Of a stretch of 64,000 nucleotides of DNA, positions 10,161 to 60,907 are shown piece after piece. A program made the position numbers and the translations under genes. Each line of letters begins with the position of its first letter. Position 1 is the first letter of the stretch. Location of the stretch: NCBI GenBank assembly GCA_017445585.1, contig JAFSTX010000065.1:48128-112127 (forward strand), in the 5' to 3' direction. Source of the stretch: Lachnospiraceae bacterium (GTDB taxonomy: Bacteria; Bacillota; Clostridia; Lachnospirales; Lachnospiraceae). A model generated the notes under the pieces. The model was given only the letters and a program-made list of their open reading frames with translations, ran no database searches and was not told the origin of the DNA.

Positions 10161-10191
10161 AAATGCTCCGTTTGCAAAAGAGCCAATCGGC

Positions 10192-11595: not shown

Positions 11596-11605
11596 AAGTG
11601 CTCCG

Positions 11606-12886: not shown

Positions 12887-12956
12887 ACTTCCCTCACAGT
12901 TGTTAAAGTAAAGAAAAAGCGGCGCAATCAATACGCCGCTGATAGTCTGTTGAAAC

Positions 12957-13217: not shown

Positions 13218-13259
13218 TAAAAAACACCTCCTAACAATTTACGGTTGGATCCTGACGGA

Positions 13260-13568: not shown

Positions 13569-13693
13569 GAATGACTCCTCCTTTGTTTCAATCTCGCCAA
13601 TTACGGTGGCCCGAAAGGACTCTTAAACCTTTTTGCGCGGCATGTGCCCAAAAGCACCAATAGAATATAACATTTTACCTGCGTTTATGTCAA
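13569..13693 (-). promoter_or_regulatory. rplU promoter plus structured 5' leader of about 95 nt (possible L21-leader type element)
   Basis: Minus strand has TTGACA (13693-13688), an 18-nt spacer, then TATATT (13669-13664). The leader contains GGTG...CACC and GTCC-TTTC-GGGC pairings. Leader identity was not verified against a covariance model. Confidence 0.4.
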
Positions 13694-13703
13694 GCACTAT
13701 TTT

Positions 13704-17917: not shown

Positions 17918-17919
17918 AT

Positions 17920-18858: not shown

Positions 18859-18859
18859 A

Positions 18860-19426
18860 TCACATGCAGGTAAGGATCAAAGTCTCTTTGATCAGCTCTG
18901 CCCTCTTCTCGTCCGCGCAGGGTTTAAGTCCGTTCACTGCCTTGAGGAAGCCGTCAAAGTCCTCGTATATCCTGAACGAGGTCGTTACGCCGCGTTTTTT
19001 GAGCAGGTCGGTTATATGGGCCTCAGGGCGGAAGCGCTCCTTCAGCCTGGCAGGGGCGTACGCGGCGATCCCCGAGGCGTGGATTATGGCAAAGGCAAAA
19101 AAGAAGCGCTTGCCGTCGCCGTCCACGACCACCAGATCGGAAAGGAGCATGCCGGGCTCTTCAAAATTGCGGACCATAGAATACTGATCCGCTCCGGCGC
19201 TGTGAATCCTTATGAGCGCGGCAAGGTTTGCAAAGAAATTCGCGAACGGAATAACGCACAGCAGAGCCGGGACCATGAGCAGATTCTTCACGGTGCCGAA
19301 TATGAGAAGTCCCGCCGTGATCAGCGCGGCGATAAAAAAAGCCAGCACCAGCGAAAACAACGCCAGCTTGCGCTTTTTATAATCTACATATCCGTATGTG
19401 CCCGGTCTGAGTCTGTCGGAAAGCAT
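18860..19426 (-). CDS. Hypothetical membrane protein
   Basis: 188 aa with two N-terminal hydrophobic helices. No motif recognised. Tightly packed behind the rluA-family gene. Confidence 0.55.
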   Translation of the reverse strand: MLSDRLRPGTYGYVDYKKRKLALFSLVLAFFIAALITAGLLIFGTVKNLLMVPALLCVIPFANFFANLAALIRIHSAGADQYSMVRNFEEPGMLLSDLVVVDGDGKRFFFAFAIIHASGIAAYAPARLKERFRPEAHITDLLKKRGVTTSFRIYEDFDGFLKAVNGLKPCADEKRAELIKETLILTCM

Positions 19427-47042: not shown

Positions 47043-49049
47043 TCAGTCCGAGTTAAAGACAGCTATAAGTCTGATCTCGCCGTCGTTGACAAATGTTCCG
47101 TTAGAAACTACAGATGCTATCTCTCCGGGCAGCACCTTTCCCGAGGAATCTGTGATCTTTTCTCCGAGTACCGGCAGTCCCGCCGCATCCTCTCCCAGGC
47201 ATATATAGTATCCGTCAAAACTGCCCCGGTATCTGGCCGGGACCGGTACGGCGACCGTAGTATGATCACTTATATCACACGAGACGAATAAGCTGTTTTC
47301 ACCGTACTCGCTCCACAATACCCTTGTATCATCTGCTCTGATCCACGAGGCATATAAGCTGATACTGCTTTTATCCGAATCACTGATCCTGATCTTCTCT
47401 CCTCCTGTATAGGATGCAGGCCCTTCTGTACTCGTGCTCCATCCCGAAAAAGCAAAGCCTGTGCGTTTTGGTTCGCTGCCATGTGACAGAGTCTGTACCG
47501 TATGCGTCTCCCCAAAGACAAGCTCACTGGACAGGATATGATCATTCCCGGGCCAGCTGCCGCCGTTCACATCATAGCTTACAGTCACTTTAAGCGGATC
47601 ATAGCTGATGGCAAATGTCCCGCACAGGACCTGATTGGACGAACCTGACGACGTCTTCTGCTTTGAGCAGAAGGTCAGCACTATATAGTCATCACCTTTT
47701 GCAGTTACAACAGCTGTAAAATCCAGAAACGGATCCCTGCCAAAATCCCTGTATACGGCTTTTCTGACTTCAATGCAGCTGACTTGAAGCACCGAGCTTA
47801 TAGACAAAATGAAATCTCTCATATACTCGGAGCTGTAGTCAGTGATATCTGCTGTAGACATGTCTATTCCGTAATCTGCGTTGTACGTCGATCTATAGAC
47901 ATTCTGTTTGGTACCGTTATATGTCCCGGTCACGTAGTCTTCAGCCGCTTGTCCGTCATGCTCTACCAGCGAATCATAGAAATCCTCCTGACCGGGAGCC
48001 GAACCTGCCACAGACTGAACATAGCTTCTCAGAGCACCTCTCTTTGTATTTACACCCTTTGCGGTAAAATCCACATAATCACCTATCCTCGCCGTCCCGA
48101 TCCATACACCCGCGTCCGCCGTAATCGCATTCTGAGATGTGCTGAGCGCGTAGGCATCAGTGCTTCCAAACAGGCTCTCTGCTATCACCGACAGTATCCC
48201 TCTGTCATTTTCTCTGCTGCAGATCCGTAAATCAAAAACATTTGCCGGAGAGAGTGCGATTCTAAGCATACCCTGTTCAAAAGTATACAGATCCGGACTC
48301 AGCGCCACTCCGGAACCGTTGACATAAATTGCCGGATCACCTGAAAAAAGCGCTGTCAGATCGATATCCTGAGACCTTGCATTAATTATGATCTCAGGAT
48401 CATATACGGACTGATTGTGTATCAGCTCGGCTTCGTCTTCTGCCTCGATATGGATATCTATCTCTGTCCGGTCAGACCTGTACGCCCTCAGCAGCTGCAG
48501 CTGGACATAGTCTGTCAGTATCTCATCTCCATCATGCGAGTAAAGATCGGTTTTTTTTACATATACCACGCCGGAATCCCTGTCAAAGATCTCGTCATCA
48601 AGCAATATTCCCTCATAATTGTTCTCTGCAAATGCAGCGTCAGATACTCCTCCCGGCGATGAGATATCTATCAGCCCCACAACATACTCCGAGTATTCTC
48701 CTGGATCAAACAGGGGTATCGAAGTCTCGGCAGTCAGTATATATCCATCCGGAAATCCGGTGCTGCGCACATGGTCATAGTATCCGTCAAGTGTGCCGCC
48801 GGTCTTTCTGACAACACTCTCGCGGACATATGTGTCTTTGAGAGTGAGACTCGCAACTTCTGTCAGTGTTTCAGGCGAAAGTTCACTGATTCCTATGATA
48901 TCCCTGTCAATCCTTGAGGAGAGTGTCTCCTGCATCTCACGTGAAACTGAATATACTTCCCCCGATCCGGACGCAACCGCATACGCGGAAAGGATAAGCA
49001 AAGCAAAGGTTAGAACTGCCGCTGCAATCCTCAAACTGTTTTTAATCAT
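47043..49049 (-). CDS. Secreted large protein with a Listeria-Bacteroides (InlB B-repeat/Flg_new-type) repeat region
   Basis: Start at MIKNSLRIAAAVLTFALLILSAYAVA-SG (Sec signal). Contains VTVSYDVNGGSW...RTGFAFSGWSTSTEG...YTGGEKI and a second ...FDGYY... unit. No LPXTG and no prepilin motif. Confidence 0.65.
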   Translation of the reverse strand: MIKNSLRIAAAVLTFALLILSAYAVASGSGEVYSVSREMQETLSSRIDRDIIGISELSPETLTEVASLTLKDTYVRESVVRKTGGTLDGYYDHVRSTGFPDGYILTAETSIPLFDPGEYSEYVVGLIDISSPGGVSDAAFAENNYEGILLDDEIFDRDSGVVYVKKTDLYSHDGDEILTDYVQLQLLRAYRSDRTEIDIHIEAEDEAELIHNQSVYDPEIIINARSQDIDLTALFSGDPAIYVNGSGVALSPDLYTFEQGMLRIALSPANVFDLRICSRENDRGILSVIAESLFGSTDAYALSTSQNAITADAGVWIGTARIGDYVDFTAKGVNTKRGALRSYVQSVAGSAPGQEDFYDSLVEHDGQAAEDYVTGTYNGTKQNVYRSTYNADYGIDMSTADITDYSSEYMRDFILSISSVLQVSCIEVRKAVYRDFGRDPFLDFTAVVTAKGDDYIVLTFCSKQKTSSGSSNQVLCGTFAISYDPLKVTVSYDVNGGSWPGNDHILSSELVFGETHTVQTLSHGSEPKRTGFAFSGWSTSTEGPASYTGGEKIRISDSDKSSISLYASWIRADDTRVLWSEYGENSLFVSCDISDHTTVAVPVPARYRGSFDGYYICLGEDAAGLPVLGEKITDSSGKVLPGEIASVVSNGTFVNDGEIRLIAVFNSD

Positions 49050-52020
49050 AAAACCACCCCCATCCTGAATAGAATGTGATCCGCTGTCTCTGTTTTTCAA
49101 AACATACCTCTACCGGTCCGTAACTGCCGTATTCTGATCTGTATACCCCGTCATACACGTATGCCCTCAGAGTATATGTCCGCACACCGATATATTCATC
49201 AGGCCCTATTGAAAAAATATCCACAAGCCAGGATCCGTCGCTCTTTTCGGTATCACTGTCCAAAGTGCGGTCCACCGAGCGTACGATACAGTCATCACAG
49301 CCTTCCTCATGGCAGCTGATCTCATAATGGATACTGATGCTTCCGTCATCCGGATACATTTCGGCTGCGAGTACCGGCAGCAGTGCGGTATCATAGTGAT
49401 AGCTGTATCTTCCTCCGCCGGGGAGGGACACCTCCGGTGGAAGAAGACCTGATGCACTGCATACGAGATCCAGATCCTCAAGCCCCGCAGTGATCACGGA
49501 CAGCTCTGTGTCCGGATGTTCGATTTCTTCAGGCAGACCTGTTATCCTGGTTCCGCAGTATCCCGGTCTGCGGAGGATCTTGAGATACTCCAGCCGGATT
49601 TCCTCCCCGTACTCAAAAGTCTTACGTATGGTGCCGCTGTCCGTATCCCATTCATCCGCTCCGAGGGACTCTATACCTCTGCCCGGAGCGATACTTACTG
49701 TGCATACCGGCAGGGTATCCTGCCAGTCACCATAGTGATGCCCAAGTTCCGTCATATCCGGATACGGGTAACGCTTACCCTTCAATCCTTCTGAGACCGG
49801 ATATGTCTCGGATGCGTCGAGCAGGAGGCCTTCATACAGCTCTTTCAATCCTCTTAAGGATGATCTGATACCGCGGCTGTCTGTCTGAACATCTTTATTC
49901 GAATAAACCTCATCGAAGAAGCAGTCTGCAAATATGGAGTTTATCGCCTCATCACTGTCCGCAGCTTCAACTGTTCCGATGATCCCGCCGGCGAATACCC
50001 TGTCCCCTCCGACTATGACAGGAGCAGTATGATAGCTCATCTCATCAAGCTCGATATGAATGCTTTCTCCTACGACACATCCTATGAATCCCCCTATACG
50101 GATCTCTCCGCAATCATCTGTCATGACAGCCTTTAGTGACTGAACAGAATATGACGATCCAACGCATACTTCCGTATCCAACCCATCATCTCCGCACATT
50201 CCGGCAAAGCCTCCCATGCAGATCGCAGCACATCCCGAGCCTTTCGTATCCAAATTGCCAAATTCATGATCATACATCCCGCCGGGCGCATACCCTCCGC
50301 AGTAGCTTCGCCGTATATCCAGATACTCACCTGCCTTTCCAATAAATCCTCCGATGCACACATTATCCGGCAAACTGCTTTTCCCCGAGATTCTCATCGT
50401 GGAGTAGCATTCCGATATCTTCATCATCCCGGCACTGCCTGCAAAAGCACCTGCGCAAACCGTATCGGGCTGAAGGTACAGCAGCGGAGTCGACAGCGCC
50501 AGACCCGATCCCACGATGCCCAGCGATGTGATCTCCAGATCCTCTGCCCTCCCGAATAACCCTTGGCACGACATGAATCCGCCGCCTATGCACAGGTCAT
50601 ATATCTTCCTTCCGCATCCGGCAAGGTTCACCTTGCATACGCAGTCTATCGGCACAAATGCGTCTTTTCCGCTGCCGTCCTGCATACAGATACCGTAAAG
50701 AAGATCACAGTAGTCTCGCGTCACCTGATCGTTCTCAGGATACCTGCCGGAGTACGAAAGGTCTTCTCCGAGTATTACCCGAAGAGTCTTCCCTCCGGAA
50801 TAAACTCCCGGATCAAATCCGCTGACAGCTCCGGAGATGTTCTGAAGATGCCTTATTGCGGTGACCTCCAGCGTCCCGTTTACGGCGCGTTCAAACAGAG
50901 AGTTCACAGTTACCTGGCTGCAGACCGGAAGAGCCAGATAATCACCGGCCGGCGATACCGTAACGCTGATACAGAGATCTTCCCCGGGGATAAAACCGTC
51001 CCCCATGATCTCAGAGATATGACAACCTTCTGTTTCCGGTTCGTTTCCGCTGTTTCCCAGGAAAACAAGTGAATCCAATACTATTCCGGTCTCAAATATC
51101 CCGTCCTCGTCAAATCGTGCGTATTCTATCTCTAAAGGAGTCCCGTCAGAGGTCAGTGCGCAAAGGCCAATCCTTCTGTCAGTATCTCCGCTTTTCAGCA
51201 TGCAGCTATTCTTGTCTATAGAAAATTCCCTGCTGCATCCACTCTGTACTCCGACGATCTTAAACGATAAATCCGTACCTGCTGTATTCGGATCATAGAT
51301 TTCCAGCATCAGATCCTCTCCGTTTGATACAGACACGACCGGAGCATCAAGGCTGATACTCTTTACATCTGAAACAATCCCTCCTCCGTAGTATCCCAGG
51401 ATCACCTGCTGATCTCCGCTGACATATGTCTGTCTGTAATGCCTGGCGTCCTTTTCGCTGATGTCTCCGTTACGGCGACCGCCCCGATTCAGGTATGCGG
51501 CCACATGAGCATAATCCAGAGGCGCATCCGTATCAGCGTATATCACTCCGTACACGGCCATTGCCTCTGCATTATATTCGATAAAGAATCTGTCGTCCCC
51601 ACTGCGGCTTACAAGCACGCTGCTGCCGTCCAAAAGTGTGCCGTCTACGAAAGCAGAATCCTCTTCATCCATACTGTCCAGAAACCGGCAGTTGCCTGTA
51701 TCGCCGAAAGTGTATTCTATAAGAGCTGCTCTGTCGTATCCTGAAACATCAGACCAGTAGTCAAAATCAGACGGTGTCTCATCCATAGTATGCCCGTATC
51801 TTTCCATGCTTTCTCCGGAATGGTTCAGACGTAACTCTCCGATTCGATTCTGTGCCGTGATATAGATATTCCTGGCAGTCTCATCCGCTTCACGCGTACG
51901 GCTCTCAAGCCTGATACTGCGAAGTGAGACCGCGGCAAGAACCGACAGAATCGTGATCACAGATACCGTTATCAGCATTTCCGCAACAGTGAATGCCCGC
52001 CTGTATACAGACGTTCTCAT
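49042..52020 (-). CDS. Giant (992 aa) prepilin-like protein with GLUG-like repeats, a putative pilus-associated adhesin
   Basis: N-terminus MRTSVYRRA-FTVAEMLITVSVITILSVLAAV is a class III signal (F+1, E+5) but has Ala at -1. Recurring GGF[IA]G / GGIIG units (IGGFIGKAGE, MGGFAGMCGD, IGGFIGCVVGE, AGGIIGTVEA). ATGA overlap with the pilO-like gene. Confidence 0.7.
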   Translation of the reverse strand: MRTSVYRRAFTVAEMLITVSVITILSVLAAVSLRSIRLESRTREADETARNIYITAQNRIGELRLNHSGESMERYGHTMDETPSDFDYWSDVSGYDRAALIEYTFGDTGNCRFLDSMDEEDSAFVDGTLLDGSSVLVSRSGDDRFFIEYNAEAMAVYGVIYADTDAPLDYAHVAAYLNRGGRRNGDISEKDARHYRQTYVSGDQQVILGYYGGGIVSDVKSISLDAPVVSVSNGEDLMLEIYDPNTAGTDLSFKIVGVQSGCSREFSIDKNSCMLKSGDTDRRIGLCALTSDGTPLEIEYARFDEDGIFETGIVLDSLVFLGNSGNEPETEGCHISEIMGDGFIPGEDLCISVTVSPAGDYLALPVCSQVTVNSLFERAVNGTLEVTAIRHLQNISGAVSGFDPGVYSGGKTLRVILGEDLSYSGRYPENDQVTRDYCDLLYGICMQDGSGKDAFVPIDCVCKVNLAGCGRKIYDLCIGGGFMSCQGLFGRAEDLEITSLGIVGSGLALSTPLLYLQPDTVCAGAFAGSAGMMKISECYSTMRISGKSSLPDNVCIGGFIGKAGEYLDIRRSYCGGYAPGGMYDHEFGNLDTKGSGCAAICMGGFAGMCGDDGLDTEVCVGSSYSVQSLKAVMTDDCGEIRIGGFIGCVVGESIHIELDEMSYHTAPVIVGGDRVFAGGIIGTVEAADSDEAINSIFADCFFDEVYSNKDVQTDSRGIRSSLRGLKELYEGLLLDASETYPVSEGLKGKRYPYPDMTELGHHYGDWQDTLPVCTVSIAPGRGIESLGADEWDTDSGTIRKTFEYGEEIRLEYLKILRRPGYCGTRITGLPEEIEHPDTELSVITAGLEDLDLVCSASGLLPPEVSLPGGGRYSYHYDTALLPVLAAEMYPDDGSISIHYEISCHEEGCDDCIVRSVDRTLDSDTEKSDGSWLVDIFSIGPDEYIGVRTYTLRAYVYDGVYRSEYGSYGPVEVCFEKQRQRITFYSGWGWFYD

Positions 52021-52637
52021 ATCCGCACCTCCTTTCCTTTGCCTGCAGTTCCGACAGCCCCAGTATAACTATCGGCATACTCAATAAAAAACAAAGATAA
52101 AGTCACAGATACACAGCATTTCCCGGAGATACTCCGATCTGTCAGGTCTGCCTGTGGTTCGGGATCCACCGCATTGACCGCGATAGATCTGAATACCGTC
52201 CTGCACGGAGATCCGATGATAAGTCCCATTATCTTTCTCGCTTCGGTATAGTTTTCCGCCTTGAAATCTATACTGACTCCGCGCCTTATATATGCGCCGT
52301 CCGGTCCTGACGGTTCATCAAATGCGATATCGTATGTGATAGCCTGTTCCATTACAGACGACAAATAGGCCAGTTCCTCCTCGGCGCTGTCATATCTGAA
52401 CACCTTTTTTCCGAGTGACATGCCTTCCGCTATCTCACTTTTCATCTGTGCCAGTCTGGCTGCGCGCAGTTCCTCGGCAGATCTGTCCTGTTCTATCTGC
52501 GTCAGCTCTGCCTCAAGTCCAGCCTTCTGACCGTCTATATATGAGTCAAGCATACTAAAGCAGGTTATGCCCGCTAAAACGACGAACAGAAACGAGACTG
52601 CGGATATAACGATCAGTTTTTTCTTTCTTTCCTTCAT
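52017..52637 (-). CDS. PilO-like pilus assembly protein (bitopic, coiled coil)
   Basis: 206 aa with an N-terminal TM, then a coiled coil (LEAELTQIEQDRSAEELRAARLAQMKSE). Assignment rests mainly on position after the pilM/pilN-like genes. Confidence 0.45.
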   Translation of the reverse strand: MKERKKKLIVISAVSFLFVVLAGITCFSMLDSYIDGQKAGLEAELTQIEQDRSAEELRAARLAQMKSEIAEGMSLGKKVFRYDSAEEELAYLSSVMEQAITYDIAFDEPSGPDGAYIRRGVSIDFKAENYTEARKIMGLIIGSPCRTVFRSIAVNAVDPEPQADLTDRSISGKCCVSVTLSLFFIEYADSYTGAVGTAGKGKEVRI

Positions 52638-52646: not shown

Positions 52647-53222
52647 TCACTCCCTGTCTGCAAAACAGACTTTAAGTTCAATCGTCGGAACACGGACCGG
52701 TTCTCTTCCTGCGCCGTTACTGTATACAGCCATATTACTTGCTGTCCTGGTCGCCGCATATGATATAAGCTCATCAGCGGTCAGAAGCCCGATCATATCC
52801 GAAGCTCCCCAAAGCGATACATCAAATACAGTAGCCGAAAGATCATTGCCTGAAAGACGATATTTCATGACAGCACCGTTGGAAATGATGTATTCGTCGA
52901 TCTTGTCCAGCACTATGTCTCTGTCAGCAAGCATGCGCTCATCGTCCGTCAGATAGCCTGTCCCGTACTCGGTATACATAGCTGCGACATCACCGAAATC
53001 TGCATTAGCCTCCCGCAGGGCCTCCAGTTCTCTCAGTGAGGATTCTCTGTGAGATCTGAGCCCGGAGAGTGAATTATACGCAGGGATCATCAGGAAATAG
53101 ACTGCAGTAAGTACTGCAGCCAGAAGCGCCAGAAAAGACAGAATGATTGCTATCTCTGCGCGAAAGGAGCTGTTTTTCCTGACAAGATTGATCGAATGCG
53201 CGGTATGTACTTCTCTCTTCAT
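52647..53222 (-). CDS. PilN-like pilus assembly protein (bitopic)
   Basis: 191 aa. Short cytoplasmic N-terminus (INLVRK...), a TM, then a coiled coil. ATGA overlap with pilM-like. Positional/topological call. Confidence 0.45.
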   Translation of the reverse strand: MKREVHTAHSINLVRKNSSFRAEIAIILSFLALLAAVLTAVYFLMIPAYNSLSGLRSHRESSLRELEALREANADFGDVAAMYTEYGTGYLTDDERMLADRDIVLDKIDEYIISNGAVMKYRLSGNDLSATVFDVSLWGASDMIGLLTADELISYAATRTASNMAVYSNGAGREPVRVPTIELKVCFADRE

Positions 53223-54079
53223 ATCGCTGCGCCATCCGCCGAGACCACACCTATCGCAGAGAAAAGCAGCGATGCGTCATCACTGTCTATGGCGCACCCG
53301 AGCAGATTCCTGACGGAATAAATACTTCTGCCCAATTCCTTCTTAAGCGATCTGAGCGTGCTCTTTACGGTAGCTCCTTCCCCGTATACATAGACGCCGG
53401 AGCTGTCGCTGTCGGCGATATTGTTCTCATCGTAATAATCCAGAGTGCCCTTGATCTTTCCTATCTGATCCTCCACGCTTCCCGCATCCGAATTGATCTC
53501 ATGCTGTGCTATGCACTCACTTCCGCTGTAGACACGTATCAGTGTCCTCCTGGGATTCAGATCTACAAAGATCGGATTCTCCTTTGACAGTCCAGAGTTC
53601 CTGACTATATTGCCTATAGCCACGCATTCCGGTATCAGATAGTCCAGTCGGAGATTGTTCCTGACAAAGGCAGCCTGATAATCCGTGACCAGTGAACGCC
53701 TGGTGATTACACATAGATATTCGTTATCGCTTCCCGTGACTTGCTGACAGTCGAATACATAGTCCTCATCGTCGTTCATACGCATTTCTTCACCCAGACT
53801 TTCCATCAGCTTGCGGAAGATCCTGTCACGATCACCCAGGTCGTCCCTGACTGTCCTGAATATGCACTGCTCATCTGATATGATCGTCCCGGCAGAACAG
53901 TTCCTGACGCCCTCTTCCCGGAGCATCGCGCCTACCTTTCGCATATTTGAATCACACAGCCCGCTTCCGGGCTCGATAGCTATGGTCATCGTCTTCCTGA
54001 TCTCATTTCCCGCAAGGACGGATACATATATTTCCTCTTCACCGGGCTTTACAATGACTGTTTTTCTCATAATTGCCAA
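53219..54079 (-). CDS. PilM-like (actin-fold) pilus assembly protein, divergent
   Basis: 286 aa, cytoplasmic, no TM, located between pilD and the pilN-like gene. Sequence motifs are weak, so the call is by synteny. Confidence 0.45.
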   Translation of the reverse strand: MAIMRKTVIVKPGEEEIYVSVLAGNEIRKTMTIAIEPGSGLCDSNMRKVGAMLREEGVRNCSAGTIISDEQCIFRTVRDDLGDRDRIFRKLMESLGEEMRMNDDEDYVFDCQQVTGSDNEYLCVITRRSLVTDYQAAFVRNNLRLDYLIPECVAIGNIVRNSGLSKENPIFVDLNPRRTLIRVYSGSECIAQHEINSDAGSVEDQIGKIKGTLDYYDENNIADSDSSGVYVYGEGATVKSTLRSLKKELGRSIYSVRNLLGCAIDSDDASLLFSAIGVVSADGAAI

Positions 54080-54876
54080 ACCTCCATATTAAATATGCCT
54101 AGATAAATACTGATAAGCGTCGGCCCGAACACAGAACATACAAATGTAGACAGGCAGATAGACGGCACGAAAGCGAAACTCCTGTCTGTCGCATCCCGCC
54201 TGAATGCCGCATACAGCAGTCCGAACAGACACATAAGAACGATGTTAAGCAGGCTGCCTGCAAGCCCCAGAAACAGTCCCGTGGAGAACAGAAGCTTTAC
54301 GTCAGCTCCTCCGAGGCAGTCCTTTTTGAGTATCATTTTCAGGGCAATAGCCGCTGCAAGTATGAGTGCAGGTATCAGCAGCCCGCCCAAAGCCGCGTTT
54401 ATCAGGTATTTTGACGTATCCTTCTCAAAAGGTATCATCGCCGTCCAGATCAGGGCCATTAGTACAAAGAAAATGTTAGGCACGGTCCTGGTATCCAGAT
54501 CGGTCAGCGACGCCGGAATAAGAAGCGAGAGCATCACCAGAGCCTTTGCCAGCTGAAGTCCGTATCCCAGATACAGATAACACAGCAGAAATGACGCAGC
54601 CGTAAATAGTTCTGTCATAAAATGTCTGACAGGAATACGCTCTTTGCAGTATCTGCACCTTCCGCGCAGTATCAGATAACTCGCTATCGGCAGCAGATCT
54701 GCGGCCGACAGCAAATGCATGCAGTGGTCACACACACTCCTTTTTCCCGACAAAGCTGTATCGGCATTGACATATCTCCATGCGCAGCAGTCCAGAAAGG
54801 ACCCCATGACAGCACCTGAGATAAAGAATAAAAATGCGGAAAAAATCTTAAATCCCAAAAGATCGGTAATCTCCAT
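54067..54876 (-). CDS. pilD: Prepilin peptidase (A24 family, PilD)
   Basis: Start at MEITDLLGF. Has the N-terminal Cys pairs CDHC...CRYC, catalytic-Asp contexts LTDLDTR and GGADVKL, and is polytopic. Confidence 0.88.
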   Translation of the reverse strand: MEITDLLGFKIFSAFLFFISGAVMGSFLDCCAWRYVNADTALSGKRSVCDHCMHLLSAADLLPIASYLILRGRCRYCKERIPVRHFMTELFTAASFLLCYLYLGYGLQLAKALVMLSLLIPASLTDLDTRTVPNIFFVLMALIWTAMIPFEKDTSKYLINAALGGLLIPALILAAAIALKMILKKDCLGGADVKLLFSTGLFLGLAGSLLNIVLMCLFGLLYAAFRRDATDRSFAFVPSICLSTFVCSVFGPTLISIYLGIFNMEVWQL

Positions 54877-54889
54877 CACATCACCTCCG

Positions 54890-54912
54890 GGGAGAGGGAC
54901 CAGCCCTCTCCC
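54890..54912 (-). terminator. GC-rich 9-bp hairpin just after the short pilin gene (attenuator/mRNA stabiliser candidate; no U-tract)
   Basis: GGGAGAGGG-5 nt-CCCTCTCCC. It lies between the pilin stop (54935) and the pilD SD/start (54876). Confidence 0.45.
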
Positions 54913-54934
54913 GTGTATTGCCCTGAAAACCGGA

Positions 54935-55390
54935 TCAACCTTCCCAAACGAGCTGGATCGTTCCGGTATCATTCATGAAGACCTTGATATACTTGCCTGC
55001 CACAGCGCTGGTACCGGAGTAGGTGGCCTGAGCAACGGTCTCCGAAGGATTGACGACCATATAAAAGTCCTCGCATCCGCCGTCTGTAGCCGTACCTCTG
55101 CCGTAACCGACCGGAACGTCAGCTACAAGCATGCCGGAAGCCGCATCAAAATAGCACGTGGTGCCGGTTGAGGTCAGTGTCTGGTTCTCGAGATCTTCAC
55201 CAGACAGATACATGGCTACTGCAGCGGCCTTTGCCGAGCGCATGTTTGCTATGTCCGTTTCTTCTCGCGCATTCTCAAGTCTCGACCCGAATACCGGGAT
55301 CGCAATGACAGCGAGCACGGCGATGATTGCGACTACGATCAGAAGTTCGGCCAGTGTAAATCCATTCTCTTTTCTTTCTTTTCTTTTCAT
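54935..55390 (-). CDS. pilA: Type IV pilin (151 aa; likely major subunit)
   Basis: MKRKERKENG-FTLAELLIVVAIIAVLAVIAIPVF is a class III signal with G-1, F+1, E+5. Two C-terminal Cys (CYFDAASG...GGCEDF). AAAGGAGGAAATA SD upstream. Confidence 0.88.
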   Translation of the reverse strand: MKRKERKENGFTLAELLIVVAIIAVLAVIAIPVFGSRLENAREETDIANMRSAKAAAVAMYLSGEDLENQTLTSTGTTCYFDAASGMLVADVPVGYGRGTATDGGCEDFYMVVNPSETVAQATYSGTSAVAGKYIKVFMNDTGTIQLVWEG

Positions 55391-55467
55391 TATTTCCTCC
55401 TTTTATATCCCGGCAAAAGCAAGGATGGTCCCAGGGCCTGACCACGTCTTTGCTCCGCCTGTTTCTT

Positions 55468-56562
55468 CTAAAACAACTCATACATCTGAAATAAAGGAAT
55501 ATAGATAGCAAAAACTATAAAGCCTGCTATAATCGCTACAGCTATGAGCAATGCAGGTTCCATAAGGGACAGAAGCTTTTTGACCTGACTGTCGGCTTCG
55601 TCTGAAAAGTGTCTGGCACACATATCCAGCATGTTAGTCAGATCACCGGTCTCCTCCCCGATAATGATCATCTCCGTCAGAATATCCGGAAATACTTCTT
55701 CTCCTCTCATACTCACGCCCAAACCTCTGCCTGTCAGAACTCCCCTGCAGGATCTTGATACTGCTTCCGAAAAAGACGTATTGGTAATAACGGAAGACGT
55801 TATCTCGAGCGCTCTGGTGATCACTGTTCCTGAGGAGAGAAGCATGGAAAGCGTAGACGCGTACATAGATGAATATCTGTTCCTGAGCAGTCCGCCCAGC
55901 ATGGGCAGAGACAGTCTGGCTTTATCTATCTTCCTTCTCCACTGTATCTTCCTTCCCATGGCGATCCTCACCACGATCACAAGAGCGGCTGCGCCCGCGA
56001 TAAGCAGCGCATTTCTGCCGAAGAATCCCGATACTGCAACGATAGCCTTTGTAATCCCCGGGAGCTCGCTTCCCATTCCGTCAAATATCGCTGTGAGCTT
56101 GGGCATGACATACAGCATTACAACGAGCAGTACTGCAATGGCGATCAGGATGACAAACGAGGGATAAATCAGCGCGTTCCGGATCTGTCTCTTCATTCCG
56201 GATCGCTTTCTGTAGTATTCTGCAAGGCTGTCAAATGCTCTCTTAAGCTCTCCCGAGCTTTCACCCGCCCTGACAGTTTCTATGAAGAACGGCTTGAAAA
56301 GCCCCTCGCCGTTATTTGCGAAAGCAGACGCTACAGTACTTCCGGACCGGAGATCCCTGTATACCGACTCAAGAAGCGGACTAAGCTTGCGGTCGGATGT
56401 CTCCCGCTGTATCATCCCGACGCAATCTGTGATCTGCAGTCCGCTCCCGAGGAGTCCCGCGATCTGTGTACACATAAAACTCATGGAATCATCCTTTATT
56501 GCAGGACTGATATCCTTTTTTAATAAGCTTGTTTTTCTATCAGAAACATTCATATCATTCAA
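55468..56562 (-). CDS. pilC: Type IV pilus platform protein PilC (T2SS F family)
   Basis: Two T2SSF repeats (..R.G..L..A........F...F......GE.SG.L) with three TM segments. Confidence 0.9.
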   Translation of the reverse strand: MNDMNVSDRKTSLLKKDISPAIKDDSMSFMCTQIAGLLGSGLQITDCVGMIQRETSDRKLSPLLESVYRDLRSGSTVASAFANNGEGLFKPFFIETVRAGESSGELKRAFDSLAEYYRKRSGMKRQIRNALIYPSFVILIAIAVLLVVMLYVMPKLTAIFDGMGSELPGITKAIVAVSGFFGRNALLIAGAAALVIVVRIAMGRKIQWRRKIDKARLSLPMLGGLLRNRYSSMYASTLSMLLSSGTVITRALEITSSVITNTSFSEAVSRSCRGVLTGRGLGVSMRGEEVFPDILTEMIIIGEETGDLTNMLDMCARHFSDEADSQVKKLLSLMEPALLIAVAIIAGFIVFAIYIPLFQMYELF

Positions 56563-58282
56563 CCGTATTAAAGACTCTGACCGCTTCCGACGAGGTGGTC
56601 ACACCGTCAAAAATCTTGTCAAGGCATACCTGCTTGAGTCTCCTGTATCCCGTACGCAGTGCCATATCCCTGACAGTCTCTATATCTGCCCCCGCAGCAA
56701 TACATCTGCGCAGCTCCCGTTCCATGAGCAGAATCTCAAAGACTCCGCTCCTGCCCTTGTATCCCGTACCTGCACACGCAGGGCAGCCTGTGCCTCGATA
56801 CAGCCTCACCTCGTCTGTGGCATCCTCTCCTGCGGCCAGCTCGGCAAGCTCTCCGGCCTCGGCCTCATAAGACACCCTGCAGGCAGGACAGATTTTTCGG
56901 ACAAGTCGCTGGCTGATTACACCTATCAGCGAGGAAGCGATCATGTATCCCGGCACTCCCATATCCAGCAGACGTTCAAAGGCAGCAACAGCGCTCGACG
57001 TATGGATCGTGCTTATTACGAGATGACCTGTGATAGCCGCCCTCATGGCGATCTCAGCGGTCTCACGGTCACGGATCTCACCTATACAGATTATGTCCGG
57101 ATCCTGTCTCAAGGCTGCCTTCAGTCCTTTGACAAAAGTCATCCCGCTCTTTGTATTGATCTGCACCTGTGAAATCCCGTTCATATGGTATTCGACAGGA
57201 TCCTCCAGGGTTATTATGTTCACGTCCTTACGGTTCAGAGTACTGAGCATTGCATACTGAGTCGTGGATTTGCCGCTCCCTGTCGCACCTGATATCAGGA
57301 TAAGTCCGCTGTGATTGGAAAGGAGCTTTTCGTATTTGGACATATTATCCTGATCCATTCCCAGAGAATCCTTTTCCAGTATCCCGATGCTTTTGCGCAG
57401 CAGCCTGATGACTACCTTCTCGCCATATACAGTAGGCAATGTGGAGATTCGCAGATCCGTCTCCTCTTCGCCGCTGCGCACACTCGTGCGTCCGTCCTGC
57501 GGTACTCGCTTTTCCGCGATATCCATGCCGGCCATGACCTTGATCCTTGCTGTTACGGAAGGGTGCAGTCTCCTCGAAATACGCTGCATCTCTCTGAGCA
57601 GTCCGTCCACCCTGATACGTATCACACACTCACGCTCACCAGGCTCGATATGAATATCCGATGCGCGCTGCTCAAGTGCCATAGTGATCATCGAACTGAC
57701 ATACCTTGCCGTAGCTGAATCGATATCTTCCGTCTCCGCACCGGGATCGGGAGCAGCAGCTGTTTCCATGCTGTGTCCGTCGTGATCCTCTGTCATCTCG
57801 GCTATCGCTCTGTGGCTCTGTTCGACACCGTACACCTCGGTGATACGGCGGTCTATGGCAGACGGGAATGCCGTACAGGGTCTGATCCTTTTCCCCGAGT
57901 ATTCCCTTGCTTTCTGTATGGCCAGCAGGTCCTGAGGATCCTTCATGGCGAGCAGCAGCCACTGATCCGAGATTCTGACCGGAAATATCCCCTGGCTCCT
58001 GCATATCTGCGGCGGAAGGCTTCTGACTGCTTCCCCGTCTGTTTTCTCCGCATCTATATCAGCAAATACTGCCCCGGAAATCTCCGTATATATCCTGACC
58101 ACGTCGGTCTCTGTGAGAATCATCATCTCACACAGATACTCAGCCAGAGTCCTTCGGATCGTCTGTTTCTCGCTTCCTGAAAACCTGAGTGCTGTCTCTG
58201 CTTCCTCGAGCTGCTGTCTGCTGACAAGGTTATGCTGCAGGACGTATTTCCTGAAACTGATCTGCTCCATCATTTCCTCCAA
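56555..58282 (-). CDS. pilB: Type IV pilus assembly ATPase PilB (GspE family)
   Basis: T2SSE_N domain, Walker A GATGSGKSTT, Asp box, Walker B, His box, and tetracysteine CPAC...CPACAGTGYKGR. The ORF-track start is TTG. An ATG at 58270 with GGAGG 5 nt upstream is the more likely start. Confidence 0.92.
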   Translation of the reverse strand: MEEMMEQISFRKYVLQHNLVSRQQLEEAETALRFSGSEKQTIRRTLAEYLCEMMILTETDVVRIYTEISGAVFADIDAEKTDGEAVRSLPPQICRSQGIFPVRISDQWLLLAMKDPQDLLAIQKAREYSGKRIRPCTAFPSAIDRRITEVYGVEQSHRAIAEMTEDHDGHSMETAAAPDPGAETEDIDSATARYVSSMITMALEQRASDIHIEPGERECVIRIRVDGLLREMQRISRRLHPSVTARIKVMAGMDIAEKRVPQDGRTSVRSGEEETDLRISTLPTVYGEKVVIRLLRKSIGILEKDSLGMDQDNMSKYEKLLSNHSGLILISGATGSGKSTTQYAMLSTLNRKDVNIITLEDPVEYHMNGISQVQINTKSGMTFVKGLKAALRQDPDIICIGEIRDRETAEIAMRAAITGHLVISTIHTSSAVAAFERLLDMGVPGYMIASSLIGVISQRLVRKICPACRVSYEAEAGELAELAAGEDATDEVRLYRGTGCPACAGTGYKGRSGVFEILLMERELRRCIAAGADIETVRDMALRTGYRRLKQVCLDKIFDGVTTSSEAVRVFNTVE

Positions 58283-58844
58283 GGATCATTGATTCGGGCC
58301 ATACTCTGAAGCAGCCGTCAAGGATGGCGCTGCCTTCATCATCCGTGATCCGGACGGACAGATCGACAGCTCCGTCCGGCCCCAGACTGTAGTCCAGCGA
58401 TGTATTCAGAGTCACAGGCCTTATCGCGGTAAGAAACCTTGCGCGTTCCGGACAGAGACTTACCAAGTCTCCTCTTTCACTGCAGAATCTGATACTTCCG
58501 TTCACGCTCTCCAGATATCCCCTGCAGCCCCTGCTGCGGCTGGCAAACGTCAGTTTCCCGCTCACCGGATCTTCTGTGAAATCCTCCGCTGATTCAAGTT
58601 CATGCATCAGGGCGTATTCATAGTCAAAAAGGATCGCTCTCGCATTTGCCTTTGCCGTGCTTTCCGCGTAGACAGAAACTCCGGAATATATGGCGGCGAC
58701 GGCTATCAGACCGCTCAGCGCCGCAAAAAAAAGCGCGGTAAGTGACTCAGCCAGCGTAAAGCCGGCTTTTCTCCTGTCAGCCCTTATATCTGTAGCCGCA
58801 GAAGCCTCCCGTTTCCGCAAAAAACGTTTCCACCGTGATCTCAT
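58230..58844 (-). CDS. Minor prepilin-like protein (204 aa)
   Basis: ...RRKAG-FTLAESLTALFFAALSGLIAVAAI is a class III signal with E+5. Overlaps its neighbours on both sides. Confidence 0.7.
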   Translation of the reverse strand: MRSRWKRFLRKREASAATDIRADRRKAGFTLAESLTALFFAALSGLIAVAAIYSGVSVYAESTAKANARAILFDYEYALMHELESAEDFTEDPVSGKLTFASRSRGCRGYLESVNGSIRFCSERGDLVSLCPERARFLTAIRPVTLNTSLDYSLGPDGAVDLSVRITDDEGSAILDGCFRVWPESMILGGNDGADQFQEIRPAA

Positions 58845-59082
58845 CCCTTATCCCGTCCTCGCTTTCCGTATAAAGTATGCAGGTTCCGTTTGCATCATTC
58901 TTCCCTGATATAAAACTCCTGACTTCGCTTATCGAATCGCAGAGTCTTATCCTTTGATCTGTCGACGAACTGCCTATCCTCGTTCCCGTCAGTGTGCACG
59001 TCAGAAAAAGCACCGAAGAAAGTACTGTGATCAGGAATGCCGCAAGTGATTCTGCAAGCGTCTCGCCCCGGGAGCTTCTCAT
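58777..59082 (-). CDS. Minor prepilin-like protein (101 aa), degenerate signal
   Basis: MRSSRG-ETLAESLAAFLITVLSSVLFL has G-1 and E+5, but E instead of F at +1. ATGA overlap with the upstream gene. Confidence 0.5.
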   Translation of the reverse strand: MRSSRGETLAESLAAFLITVLSSVLFLTCTLTGTRIGSSSTDQRIRLCDSISEVRSFISGKNDANGTCILYTESEDGIRDEITVETFFAETGGFCGYRYKG

Positions 59083-59645
59083 GTGTAGGTTCCTCCCGTG
59101 AATGAGAGCATCCTTTCCCCGCCTTCATTTGCACTCTCATACAGATCGGCACCAAATAAAACGGTTCGTTTGCTCGGAAGCGGCATTTCTTCTCCATCTC
59201 TTTCTATCTTTCTCACGCTGACGCTCACACTGTAATCGGAGCTTGAAATCCTGAAGATCAGTCGCATGACTATCTTCTGACTGCTCAGACGCATGATGAA
59301 CGGAAGCTCGTATTCGTGCTCCGGTTCGGCACACAGCCTGTATAGTCCGTGCGCAAGGTATTTGTGGAACACACCTGTCCCGGCTTCCTTGGTCCGCATC
59401 TCCAGCTCGGCAAGCCCCATATTCTCAGAGTAGCAGACTTCCTTTCCGGAAATGCTGTCCGAGATCAGTCTCAGCGCCGACTCGGTAAAGAGTTTCGATT
59501 CGTATTCGTCGTTCATTTTTGTGTTTCCTCCTGATAAAGCAGATGAATTAGCTATAATCATAAGCCCCAGTGAGCTGCATATGAGCAGCATGAAAAGGGC
59601 TGCCGCGAGCGATGCGCCGCGATCTTTTCCTGTTCCTCTCATCAT
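59079..59645 (-). CDS. Minor prepilin-like protein lacking Glu+5 (PilX/GspK-class candidate, 188 aa)
   Basis: MMRGTGKDRG-ASLAAALFMLLICSSLGLMII has a hydrophobic pilin-type helix, but +5 is Ala. ATGA overlaps at both ends. Confidence 0.45.
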   Translation of the reverse strand: MMRGTGKDRGASLAAALFMLLICSSLGLMIIANSSALSGGNTKMNDEYESKLFTESALRLISDSISGKEVCYSENMGLAELEMRTKEAGTGVFHKYLAHGLYRLCAEPEHEYELPFIMRLSSQKIVMRLIFRISSSDYSVSVSVRKIERDGEEMPLPSKRTVLFGADLYESANEGGERMLSFTGGTYT

Positions 59646-60907
59646 GGCCTGACATACCTGACCCTGTAGCGAAGGCCGTTGTCCAGATCGTTTTCGAGCC
59701 AGTAATAATTCGCGAACATGTTTATTCGTCCCGATATATCCTGGTCAAAGCAAGCTCCCGATGCTCCTCCGATCTTCTGAGCAGCGCTGAAATAAAACGT
59801 ACAAGCGTATACGCCTCCCGAGGTCATCGAAACACCGCGTTTGCCCGTTATGCAGATGTCACCGTCGTTCTCAGATGTGCAGTCTCTCACCGTAAGTCCC
59901 GACAGAGTGCACTGACAGTCCTCAGCCAGAACCAGAGCGGCGCCCCTTGAGGCGGTGCAGTTCACTATAACTGCTTTTCCCGTCGTGCCGAACATCTTCC
60001 CGTCCGAATAGATTGCCCCGCCGCCTGCGTCAGAAGAATTGTGTCCGTTAGTAAGAGTGATATTGCCTATATACATGGTGCCATGATTGGCGATAAGCGT
60101 TCCGCCGCCTTCGTCAAAGCTGCCGTCAGCTCCGACGATGCTGCCGCCTCCCGCTGTATCGTCTATATCGAGCCGGTTGCGTGAAGCATTCTCTATAAGC
60201 CTCATTGGCTTTTTTGCAGAGATCGTATGCCCCTGAAGATAAAGCTTGAGCGTGATCCCTGAAGGGCTGTCAGGATTTGTGACCAGAGTGCTTCCGGACG
60301 CGGGGATGGCGATATCCTGCTCCAGATAAAAAGTCCCGCCCCTTCTGAATGCCTCAACGAGCTGACTGTATGTATAGACCCGTCCCTGCCTGAAGCCCTG
60401 AGCATACCGGACCGGGGTGATCTCGGTGCCTGCCCTGGTTTCTCCGTCCTCATTGACCCACCTGAGCGAATGCACTCCCGAATCATTCAGATAGACCTCC
60501 AGCACACAGCCTTCCACGTCGTTGTCGGAGCGGTAATACTCCCTGTCAAAGTACTCAAGGGGATCCGTAATGAGACAGAAATCCTCGCATCCTCCTTTCA
60601 TGGAAGTACCCCTGCCATAAGGCGCAGGCATCTCTCCCACGATCGAGCCTGAGGCAGCATCAAAATAGCAATAGACGCCTACATCATCCAGCATCTCTCC
60701 CCCGGGACCGCGTCCGGAAAAGATCATGTCCTCGGCCGCAGCCTTTGCGCTCCTCATGTTTGCGATATCGGCCGCCTCCCGCGAGCCTTCGAGCGAAGAG
60801 GCAAAGACAGGGATCGCTATCACTGTCAGTACAGCTATCACCGCAACCGTGATGAGCAGTTCACCTAGAGAAAAGCCGTATGCAGATGATAATCCATGTT
60901 TTCTCAT
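59642..60907 (-). CDS. Modular type IV pilin: PilA-paralogous pilin domain + C-terminal beta-helix-like (Pmp-type) module of about 250 aa
   Basis: Start MRKHGLSSAYG-FSLGELLITVAVIAVLTVIAIPVF, with AAAGGAGGAATGTTAC before the ATG. Residues 1 to about 170 parallel the 151-aa pilin, including both Cys. The remainder has AGGGSIVG, EGGGTLIANHG, DAGGGAIYSDG, NCTASRGAAL. Confidence 0.75.
   Translation of the reverse strand: MRKHGLSSAYGFSLGELLITVAVIAVLTVIAIPVFASSLEGSREAADIANMRSAKAAAEDMIFSGRGPGGEMLDDVGVYCYFDAASGSIVGEMPAPYGRGTSMKGGCEDFCLITDPLEYFDREYYRSDNDVEGCVLEVYLNDSGVHSLRWVNEDGETRAGTEITPVRYAQGFRQGRVYTYSQLVEAFRRGGTFYLEQDIAIPASGSTLVTNPDSPSGITLKLYLQGHTISAKKPMRLIENASRNRLDIDDTAGGGSIVGADGSFDEGGGTLIANHGTMYIGNITLTNGHNSSDAGGGAIYSDGKMFGTTGKAVIVNCTASRGAALVLAEDCQCTLSGLTVRDCTSENDGDICITGKRGVSMTSGGVYACTFYFSAAQKIGGASGACFDQDISGRINMFANYYWLENDLDNGLRYRVRYVRP

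Follow-up and report, generated by a model that had tools for sequence, protein, structure and literature searches.

A predicted modular minor pilin of 992 amino acids from a Lachnospiraceae type IV pilus operon and its family of oversized relatives

The 992-amino-acid protein encoded at positions 49042..52020 (minus strand) of the 64,000-nucleotide stretch of Lachnospiraceae DNA analysed here, hereafter called the window, is best explained as a modular minor pilin which is processed by the prepilin peptidase PilD, belongs to a type IV pilus (T4P) operon and probably acts as an adhesin at the pilus tip. A probability of about 65 % is assigned to this reading. Judged from sequence comparisons, there is little exceptional about the protein within its family, a large group of oversized type IV pilins in gut and rumen Clostridia that has received little study and whose members seem to combine a pilin stem with a GLUG beta-helix.

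Results

The open reading frame and its product

The whole gene (49042..52020, minus strand), the product of which is described here as a modular prepilin, begins with an ATG and has full-length homologues. The ATG is the earliest possible start past the upstream stop codon, is preceded by a strong Shine-Dalgarno sequence (GGAGGTG) and overlaps, as ATGA, the end of the upstream ORF (52017..52637), which encodes a PilO-like protein of 206 amino acids. The original prediction had placed the ORF at these positions, without naming the strand, and had proposed its translational coupling to the pilO-like gene; the ORF is real and lies on the minus strand, and the coupling is seen in the overlap and in the Shine-Dalgarno sequence before it. 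The NCBI entry identical to the protein is a 'hypothetical protein' from a Lachnospiraceae MAG (IJS22_07785), and the same sequence was present on four contigs. The homologues P0002, P0003, P0005 and P0006 could be aligned with the protein from end to end, which contradicts the suggestion that the ORF might have arisen by the merging of separate genes. A scan for promoters and terminators gave a signal no better than that of shuffled sequences.

When the protein itself was scanned against Pfam and NCBIfam, no model exceeded its threshold. The scores were 12.5 bits for PF07963 (N_methyl; cut-off 21.2, E=0.12), 14.6 bits for TIGR02532 (cut-off 16.3) and 12.9 bits for PF07581 (Glug; gathering cut-off 20.5, E=0.16, amino acids 521-545), and the NCBIfam models ComGD and ComGE were matched with E-values of 0.08-0.15. 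Scores below the cut-offs explain the label 'hypothetical protein', and it is hence from the homologues of the protein that its pilin and GLUG assignments derive.

A family of oversized pilins

A word-indexed homologue search returned only three proteins, whether a single sequence or a three-sequence profile was used, and a search for related loci with the three-sequence alignment found only two GTDB loci. The family emerged only in an exhaustive profile search, in which 1927 cluster representatives (clusters at 50 % identity, about 1900) were matched at E<=1e-3. The best 150 of these 1927 representatives are 444-4537 amino acids long (median 1560), and with 992 residues the protein is among the smaller members in this set. 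The size which had been predicted to be unusual for a pilin-anchored protein is thus not so among these relatives.

A recognisable prepilin N-terminus ([KR]-G/A↓F-[TS]-L-x-E, the arrow marking the cleavage site) is present in 138 of the best 150 relatives. Among the aligned members Glu occupies position +5 in 50 of 50 and Phe position +1 in 43 of 48. The N_methyl model was significant (E<=1e-3) in 41 of the 50 aligned relatives and the Glug model in 14 of the 50 (best E=1.9e-11), so that the HMM searches which had been recommended as a check failed on the protein itself and succeeded with these relatives. When compared with the sequences in the PDB, the family profile matched 20 chains, all of them type IV pilins (best E=2.7e-12), a result which speaks against an ordinary signal anchor at the N-terminus. 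These matches cover the pilin N-terminus only, the remaining approximately 900 residues being without a match, and for the conserved N-terminal core of the family (approximately 770 residues) Pfam has a model of the GLUG motif only. In the literature on GLUG in combination with pilins, on giant or large pilins and on minor pilins of Lachnospiraceae, no study of this pilin family was found. An N_methyl-GLUG architecture (IPR012902-IPR011493) is already contained, with six proteins, in Dataset S1 of a published paper (PMC8179133).

The prepilin N-terminus and alanine at position -1

The protein begins with MRTSVYRRA-FTVAEMLITVSVITILSVLAAVSL, in which Ala9 is at position -1, Phe10 at +1 and Glu14 at +5. 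The stretch MRTSVYRRA↓FTVAE represents a signal peptide of class III (prepilin), with a hydrophobic tract of 24 residues, and the pilin-like F+1/E+5 and hydrophobic helix noted in the original prediction are confirmed. The leader (amino acids 1-9; 51994..52020, minus strand) is basic, with three Arg among its nine residues, and ends in Ala; PilD is predicted to cut between Ala9 and Phe10. Alignments of profiles with mature PDB pilins set the register of this cleavage: F1 of the chain corresponds to the Phe of the family and to Phe10 of the protein. The sequence following the cut has the approximately 21 mostly hydrophobic residues, the Glu+5 and the usual Phe+1 of a type IV pilin.

The replacement of the nearly invariant Gly-1 by Ala had been singled out as a peculiarity of the protein. 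Ala9 is indeed present, but it is not remarkable. The leader of type IV pilins by definition ends in 'Gly or Ala' (PMC8179133, PMC7212644), a G-1A mutant of Streptococcus sanguinis PilE1 is processed and assembled normally, like the wild type, and the same has been reported for the G-1A change in P. aeruginosa (PMC6497953). All five ComG pilins of S. sanguinis naturally have Ala-1, and ComG pilins are processed by prepilin peptidase (PMC7212644). Among the 138 prepilin N-termini of the best 150 of the 1927 family representatives, 13 have Ala-1 (approximately 9 % of the 150) and 124 have Gly-1, Ala being the less common residue. The close homologues P0003, P0005 and P0006 have the canonical Gly-1 and the same architecture as the 992-amino-acid protein, and Ala-1 therefore marks no separate functional class. 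Both the window and locus L006 encode an Ala-1 giant pilin beside Gly-1 pilins, and PilD is encoded only once in each. By analogy with the characterized pilins, Ala-1 would be an ordinary, processable variant.

Predicted structure and domain organization

The AF2 model based on a three-sequence alignment was unusable (pLDDT 47), whereas an alignment of 50 sequences gave a model with pLDDT 87 and pTM 0.73. In this model an N-terminal helix of 54 residues is followed by an alpha/beta region and by beta-rich modules, and the structure prediction thereby agrees with a pilin-like beginning of the protein. The alpha-1 helix (amino acids 10-65; 51826..51993, minus strand), modelled as helical from residue 12 to 65, is further supported by the Glu+5 of all 50 aligned members and by the PDB matches to type IV pilins. 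Its hydrophobic part, alpha-1N (amino acids 10-33), includes Glu14, and its amphipathic part, alpha-1C, carries the family motif ExDxxAxxIxIxAQN. The alpha/beta region (amino acids 66-222; 51355..51825, minus strand) was modelled mostly with pLDDT 80-94, has conserved columns in the alignment and contains strands at 111-115, 144-150, 155-162 and 208-212; a conserved GYYGGG motif closes it. From the model we infer that this region is the pilin head fold. The AF2 strands further indicate an Ig-like beta-sandwich domain (amino acids 225-320; 51061..51348, minus strand). A Foldseek search of the PDB with the full-length model gave no match at E<=1e-3 and no pilins, the weak matches being to tandem Ig/FN3 domains.

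The conserved core (amino acids 335-720; 49861..51018, minus strand) consists of a 'mid' region with the near-invariant motifs FIPGED, NSLF and IRHLxN, followed by a beta-helix-like stack with GLUG-type repeats (AGLFG at amino acid 486, GAFAG at 524, GGFIG at 557, GGFAG at 603, GGFIG at 643 and GGIIG at 678). Five units of the form G[GA][FI][IA]G (amino acids 524, 557, 603, 643 and 678) compare with 0.28 expected, and none of 5000 shuffled sequences reached five, which bears out the GLUG-like GGF[IA]G/GGIIG repeats reported earlier. In the family the consensus AGGLxG is repeated 4-5 times. Short, regular strands extend over amino acids 458-685 in the AF2 model (pLDDT mostly at least 90), so that the tandem GG[LIF]xG repeats lie in a stack of beta-strands, and residues ~460-700 are predicted to form a beta-helix-like structure. 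The Glug match of homologue P0004 (2.1e-7) aligns to amino acids ~520-544 of the 992-amino-acid protein, the same repeat as the latter's own match below threshold. Among the matches of the model in BFVD were a phage protein with the label 'putative IgA1 protease', a tailspike and a pectin-lyase fold.

The AF2 model and the alignments place a HYGDWQ motif (amino acids 761-767) and two C-terminal beta-sandwich domains (amino acids 772-885 and 896-975) in the region 49096..49740 (minus strand). The module formed by HYGDWQ and the two C-terminal beta-sandwiches is present in ten copies in P0007, a non-pilin protein of 4449 amino acids. The tail QRQRITFYSGWGWFYD (49045..49095, minus strand), conserved at the very end of the closest homologues, was modelled with low pLDDT and resembles the opening strand of a Listeria-Bacteroides (Flg_new) repeat. 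In this subfamily the C-terminal orphan strand is conserved as ITFxSGxGWFY, the version in the protein being ITFYSGWGWFYD. With the GLUG region, the Ig-like beta-sandwiches and the C-terminal module shared with P0007, the protein joins modules that are not peculiar to T4P to a pilin module, the combination which defines modular pilins.

The type IV pilus operon

The gene lies in an operon with the order pilB-pilC-pilA-pilD-pilMNO, to which it is translationally coupled, all genes being on the minus strand. Farthest upstream are four genes for pilin-like proteins, namely one with AYG↓FSLGELL and a C-terminal POMP-like module (59642-~60907), a ComGG-like pilin of 188 amino acids without Glu5 (59079-59645), and two with SRG↓ETLAESL (58777-59082) and RKAG↓FTLAESL (58230-58844). 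They are followed by the genes for the PilB ATPase (56555-58282) and the PilC platform protein (55468-56562), which are arranged as in locus L004, and for a pilin of 151 amino acids (KENG↓FTLAELL; 54935-55390), recognised by its sequence and by HMM scans and presumably the major pilin. In L004 the Pfam domains T2SSE, T2SSF and N_methyl occur in a gene order matching that of the window (54935..58282). The prepilin peptidase PilD (A24_N_bact and Peptidase_A24; 54067..54972) is the sole one found in the cluster. The PilM-like (53219-54079), PilN-like (52647-53222) and PilO-like (52017-52637) proteins, the last encoded immediately upstream of the giant pilin, gave no Pfam matches; their genes overlap one another, and they were assigned by conserved synteny and by weak similarity to PilM_2 fusion and T2SSM-like proteins of L006. 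No PilT paralogue was found in the 64,000 nucleotides of the window.

At all five independent loci examined (the window, L001, L004, L006 and L007) the giant pilin is encoded in a T4P operon, together with a prepilin peptidase, an assembly ATPase and a platform protein. Downstream of the giant pilin gene in the window, an ORF (47043..49049, minus strand), the ATG of which overlaps the pilin stop codon by 8 nt, encodes a protein of 668 amino acids with a signal peptide and a Flg_new repeat. Such a protein is encoded directly downstream, with an overlapping or adjacent start, in the window, L001, L004 and L007, and in L006 the Flg_new repeats are within the giant pilin itself. In a Rosetta-stone test with phmmer, the 668-amino-acid protein had no similarity to the 150 best family members.

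Discussion

As a modular minor pilin, the 992-amino-acid protein would enter the membrane by way of the hydrophobic alpha-1N helix and be cut after Ala9 by the PilD of the cluster and probably N-methylated at Phe10, after which alpha-1N with its invariant Glu+5 would dock into the filament core. Its most likely position is at the tip, beside the other minor pilins, because an extension of approximately 900 residues cannot pack into the pilus shaft; it may also take part in an assembly-priming complex. A role in the tip or priming complex had been proposed in the original prediction and is plausible for a prepilin-type protein coupled to pilMNO-like genes. The Ig-like domain, the GLUG beta-helix and the two beta-sandwich domains would project from the tip as a slender stalk, which would either be an adhesin itself or hold one at a distance, with plant or host glycans or other cells as candidate ligands, and the co-translated Flg_new protein may be its partner. 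The display of modular pilins at pilus tips as adhesins is an established concept (PMC8179133).

Subunits which cap pili, of the GspK and ComGG types, usually lack Glu5. The giant pilin has Glu14 at this position and is for that reason less likely to be the first subunit, which caps the pilus, and the ComGG-like protein of 188 amino acids appears from its sequence to be a better candidate for that role.

The protein might instead be a pseudopilin or surface protein outside any filament, whose class III signal peptide, either cleaved or, owing to Ala-1, uncleaved, serves only to anchor a long adhesive stalk at the cell surface. Family members of up to 4537 amino acids are in favour of this, since it is hard to picture such proteins being threaded through peptidoglycan on a pilus tip, as are the minority status of Ala-1 (13 of 138) and the fact that filament membership is deduced for every giant pilin; by analogy, class III signal peptides are also described for non-filament (sugar-binding) proteins of archaea (PMC3047682). 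An uncleaved anchor is nevertheless unlikely, since G-1A impaired neither the processing nor the assembly of a pilin in a Gram-positive T4P (PMC6497953) and Ala-1 occurs naturally in ComG pilins (PMC7212644) and in the family. Glu5 is needed for filament assembly and is dispensable for processing (PMC6497953), so its invariance argues for assembly over mere anchoring. The T4P operons at all five loci, the coupling to pilO and the Gly-1 homologues of the same architecture also weigh against this explanation, which we regard as quite improbable. The curated HMM scores and the NCBI label could raise the suspicion of an artefact of annotation or assembly, such as merged genes or a wrong start, or of an ordinary signal anchor which mimics a pilin by chance. 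This is effectively refuted by homologues from independent metagenomes which align from residue ~3 to the C-terminus and by the exclusively pilin PDB matches of the family profile; the four contigs and the strong Shine-Dalgarno sequence at the first possible start also speak against it.

It is also conceivable, although unlikely, that the protein has a core role as a priming or structural minor pilin, its extension serving mainly as a scaffold or spacer without ligand binding, the downstream Flg_new protein being the true adhesin. By analogy with minor pilins which carry PilY1 or secreted partners, the giant pilin would then initiate assembly and carry the Flg_new protein. The conserved position of the Flg_new gene directly downstream, the resemblance of the C-terminal orphan strand to the start of a Flg_new repeat and the fusion in L006 are consistent with it. 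On the other side, the downstream protein has no sequence similarity to family members, and its Flg_new domain looks complete, leaving complementation by the strand without direct support.

The modular minor pilin proposed here most resembles PilB (pilin and vWA) and PilC (pilin and lectin) of S. sanguinis (Raynaud et al. 2021, PMC8179133; PMC9934059), with which it shares a monoderm T4P operon and the expected display at the tip as an adhesin. Far exceeding these in size, it is built from several modules (Ig-like, conserved 'mid', GLUG beta-helix and two beta-sandwiches), has neither a vWA nor a lectin domain and has Ala-1 instead of Gly-1. With the streptococcal ComG pilins (ComGC-GG) it has in common a Firmicute filament-type leader ending in Ala, followed in ComG by F-T-L-x-E (PMC7212644); those pilins, however, are small (~100-150 amino acids), function in DNA uptake and are not similar to it beyond alpha-1N. 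GLUG proteins (PF07581), such as streptococcal IgA1 protease/Zmp and large surface adhesins, have the same GG[LFI]xG...I..(S/C)Y repeats in stacked beta-strands, whereas the giant pilin lacks both a protease domain and any wall anchor, of the LPXTG type or another, and is attached by its pilin N-terminus. The giant pilin resembles GspK/PilX, CofB of ETEC and KilN of Myxococcus (PMC12075869) in that no other pilin-like subunit of its cluster is as large and that its additional domains would be expected at the filament tip, conferring specificity. Unlike GspK-type caps it keeps Glu+5, no sequence or detectable fold relationship was found, and it comes from a monoderm T4P operon, not from a T2SS, T4bP or Tad system.

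A more speculative and rather improbable proposal is that the clostridial giant pilins, as an undescribed family (~1900 clusters, up to ~4500 amino acids, with a pilin/Ig/GLUG core of ~770 residues), make long-reach adhesive harpoons of type IV pili, and that in the subfamily of the 992-amino-acid protein the conserved C-terminal strand docks the Flg_new protein as a cargo adhesin. If true, a pilus tip with a non-pilin cargo adhesin would be a monoderm analogue of PilY1.

For the gene itself, the annotation would change from 'hypothetical protein' to prepilin-type modular minor pilin. T4P operons of rumen and gut Lachnospiraceae routinely encode predicted pilins of 1000 to >4000 residues, far exceeding the size of the modular pilins studied to date, and the family may offer a way into the question of how commensal Clostridia use T4P to adhere to plant fibre, mucus or other cells.

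The giant pilin gene and its relatives

The open reading frame at 49042..52020 was confirmed as real and lies on the minus strand, the sole detail omitted from the original prediction. It codes for 992 amino acids from the first possible start codon, which is an ATG preceded by a GGAGGTG Shine-Dalgarno sequence and overlapping (ATGA) the stop codon of an upstream ORF of 206 amino acids, in agreement with the proposed coupling to a pilO-like gene. The N-terminus, MRTSVYRRA/FTVAEMLITVSVITILSVLAAVSL (the slash marks the cleavage site), has a basic leader of nine residues ending in Ala at -1, Phe at +1, Glu at +5 and a hydrophobic tract of 24 residues, in line with the Ala-1, F+1/E+5 and hydrophobic helix of the original prediction. 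The protein contains 32 cysteines (3.2 %), many of them directly preceding GLUG glycines (VCAGAF, VCIGGF, ICMGGF), which is uncommon in an extracellular protein, although the organism is presumably an anaerobe.

The curated pilin models remained below threshold with this protein (PF07963 N_methyl, E = 0.12, 12.5 bits, cut-off 21.2; TIGR02532, E = 0.023, 14.6, cut-off 16.3), which explains why the identical MAG protein at NCBI is labelled "hypothetical protein". A word-indexed search found only two relatives, P0002 (39 % identity, N-terminus MNGA/FTVSE, also with Ala at -1) and P0003 (32 % identity, MSLGKTG/FSLAE, with the canonical Gly). Since both align with the protein from end to end, the suggestion that the ORF might be an artefact of merged genes was ruled out.

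With E <= 1e-3 as the limit, an exhaustive profile search identified 1927 cluster representatives, of which 1115 had E <= 1e-10 and 119 had E <= 1e-30. In most of the best 150 of the 1927 the match runs from query residue ~5 and lies at the relative's own N-terminus. A class III signal peptide, typically KKG/FTLAELLVVVAI, is unmistakable in 138; the sequences lacking a recognisable one are mostly N-terminally truncated gene calls. Among these 150, position -1 is occupied by Gly in 124 and by Ala in 13, and position +1 by Phe (123), Tyr (10) or Met (4). In a 50-sequence family alignment Glu+5 is invariant and N_methyl is significant in 41 members. The family profile matched 20 PDB chains at E <= 1, all of them type IV pilins (best geopilin, 2.7e-12, and Myxococcus PilA, 9.2e-10; S. 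sanguinis PilE1 was also matched), and F1 of their mature chains falls opposite the Phe of the family, Phe10 in the protein studied here. These alignments give good support to both a pilin relationship and the register of cleavage, the protein itself being sub-threshold. Annotations of named family members, from Lachnospiraceae MAGs, include "type II secretion system protein".

The best 150 relatives range from 444 to 4537 amino acids in length (median 1560), with at least 2000 in 49 and at least 4000 in three. Canonical prepilins (KxG/FTLAELL) of 2000-4537 residues occur within P0021-P0150 and at L006, the locus of one relative (10001-19123); examples are P0057 (4537 amino acids, NCBI MDD3218416.1 cluster) and P0052 (4052 amino acids). 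These giants are several times longer than the 'most extreme case' of a published modular-pilin survey, 860 residues.

Repeats and predicted structure

The GLUG-like repeats of the original prediction were found as five G[GA][FI][IA]G units, at amino acids 524, 557, 603, 643 and 678, compared with 0.28 expected by chance (none of 5000 shuffles reached five), and a sixth, degenerate unit, GLFG, at about amino acid 486. PF07581 Glug matched the protein below threshold (E = 0.16) and was significant in 14 of the 50 aligned family members, including P0004, whose match (2.1e-7) aligns to the repeat carrying the weak one.

AF2 with a three-sequence alignment gave an unusable model (pLDDT 47), and with the 50-sequence alignment pLDDT was 87 and pTM 0.73. 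The latter model starts with a helix, alpha-1 (amino acids 12-65), and an alpha/beta region with four strands (66-222) which is probably the pilin head. Next come a beta-sandwich (225-320), a conserved "mid" region in which FIPGED, NSLF and IRHLxN are near-invariant, and short strands in a regular stack (~458-685) that bear the GLUG units and are interpreted as a beta-helix. The C-terminal part comprises a linker with an HYGDWQ motif, two further beta-sandwiches (772-975) and a low-confidence tail. In the PDB, Foldseek with the full-length model found weak tandem Ig/FN3 matches and nothing at E <= 1e-3. The best BFVD match was 1.3e-9; a phage "putative immunoglobulin A1 protease" was matched at 1e-5, and a tailspike and a protein with a pectin-lyase fold less strongly. 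These full-length, not domain-level, matches fit a GLUG-type beta-helix. Residues P345/E347 (FIPGED), N373-F376 (NSLF) and R390-H391-x-x-N394 (IRHLxNL) in amino acids 335-410 (window ~50791-51018, minus strand), a stretch that includes neither pilin helix nor GLUG repeats, are (near-)invariant across the 50 distant relatives and may form a binding or catalytic site.

The type IV pilus operon

The giant pilin gene (52020-49042) is the second-to-last gene of a type IV pilus operon, all on the minus strand. Four pilin-like genes come first (~60907-59642; 59645-59079, coding for a ComGG-like protein of 188 amino acids without Glu5; 59082-58777; 58844-58230), followed by the PilB ATPase (58282-56555), the PilC platform protein (56562-55468), a pilin of 151 amino acids with a significant N_methyl match (55390-54935), PilD (54972-54067; A24_N_bact and Peptidase_A24 domains) and, in the PilM/N/O position, three small genes that overlap one another (54079-52017). 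The last three had no Pfam or NCBIfam matches; they are syntenic with counterparts elsewhere and show weak similarity to a PilM_2 fusion and T2SSM-like proteins of L006. Being assignable only by synteny and this weak similarity, the alignment-complex proteins are very divergent in this lineage.

The gene at 59642-60907 codes for a second modular pilin (AYG/FSLGELL); the start chosen in the 497-amino-acid ORF call is probably too far upstream. Over its initial ~130 residues the mature protein is very similar to the 151-amino-acid pilin, and the C-terminal ~280 weakly match a polymorphic-outer-membrane-protein repeat (TIGR01376, E = 0.038). The small minor pilin at 58777-59082 has a non-canonical cleavage site, G/E-[TS]-[LF]-A-E, with Glu instead of Phe at +1 and Glu at +5, also found in two other independent clusters (L004 3106-3411, L006 9131-9478).

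A type IV pilus operon surrounded the family member at every locus examined. The order pilB-pilC-pilA-pilD-M-N-O-giant-Flg_new protein is shared by the window, L001/L002 (P0003), L004/L005 (P0005, Gly at -1) and L007 (Lachnospiraceae UBA3774). At L006 the giant, P0032 (3040 amino acids, Ala-1), lies between minor pilins and pilD-pilMN-pilO-pilT and itself contains Flg_new repeats. Both the window and L006 have a single PilD and Gly-1 pilins alongside the Ala-1 giant.

At the loci with the shared order the giant pilin is always followed by a Flg_new protein, which has 668-768 amino acids, a signal peptide and a Listeria-Bacteroides (Flg_new) repeat (window 47043-49049, minus strand, its ATG at 49049 overlapping the giant pilin stop by 8 nt; L001 6218-8482; L004 13123-15360; L007 ~11098-13401). 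The giant pilin tail, ITFYSGWGWFYD (amino acids 976-992; 49045-49095, minus strand), is kept at the extreme C-terminus of the six closest homologues as FEKxRQxITFYSGxGWFYD. It looks like the opening beta-strand of a Flg_new repeat whose remainder is absent, i.e. an orphan strand, with low AF2 confidence; in P0003-P0006 it comes after a seemingly complete Flg_new-type repeat, as judged by eye.

Proposed processing and location of the giant pilin

The original prediction, sound as to the pilin, the GLUG repeats and a tip component, had treated Ala-1 as an anomaly and offered as an alternative a membrane-anchored pseudopilin that PilD could not cleave. Neither view held. By definition a class III leader ends in "Gly or Ala" (PMC8179133, PMC7212644), the five S. 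sanguinis ComG pilins all have Ala-1 (PMC7212644), and Ala-1 is a recurrent minority state in ~9 % of the best 150 relatives, both Ala and Gly occurring among the closest. The most direct evidence is from S. sanguinis PilE1, in which changing Gly-1 to Ala left processing and filament assembly unaffected, whereas Ser blocked both; P. aeruginosa is reported to behave in the same way (PMC6497953). Cleavage does not need Glu5, whereas assembly does (PMC6497953), so its invariance in the family argues for filament assembly instead of mere anchoring. Together with the mixture of Ala and Gly among the closest relatives, these observations make an uncleavable anchor unlikely.

The giant pilin would be a processed pilus subunit, inserted co-translationally through alpha-1N, cut by PilD after Ala9 and methylated at Phe10, with Glu+5 mediating docking of alpha-1N into the filament core. 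Because the extension of ~900 residues cannot pack in the shaft, it would be located at the pilus tip beside other minor pilins, where a slender stalk, formed by an Ig-like domain, the beta-helix and further Ig-like domains, would reach outward and serve as an adhesin or spacer. Retention of Glu+5 speaks against its being the topmost subunit; a more likely cap is the ComGG-like protein, which has no Glu5. Downstream, the Flg_new protein may be a partner or a non-pilin tip cargo, as the conserved tail hints; the two proteins showed no sequence link, and the partnership is therefore speculative.

Among known proteins, modular minor pilins such as S. sanguinis PilB and PilC are closest in kind. 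The N_methyl-GLUG architecture is already listed for six proteins (Dataset S1 of PMC8179133) and no paper on this giant-pilin family was found, so the protein is a new, divergent and under-annotated modular minor pilin. The scale of the family, with pilins of at least 4000 residues, is a more interesting by-product than the protein itself.
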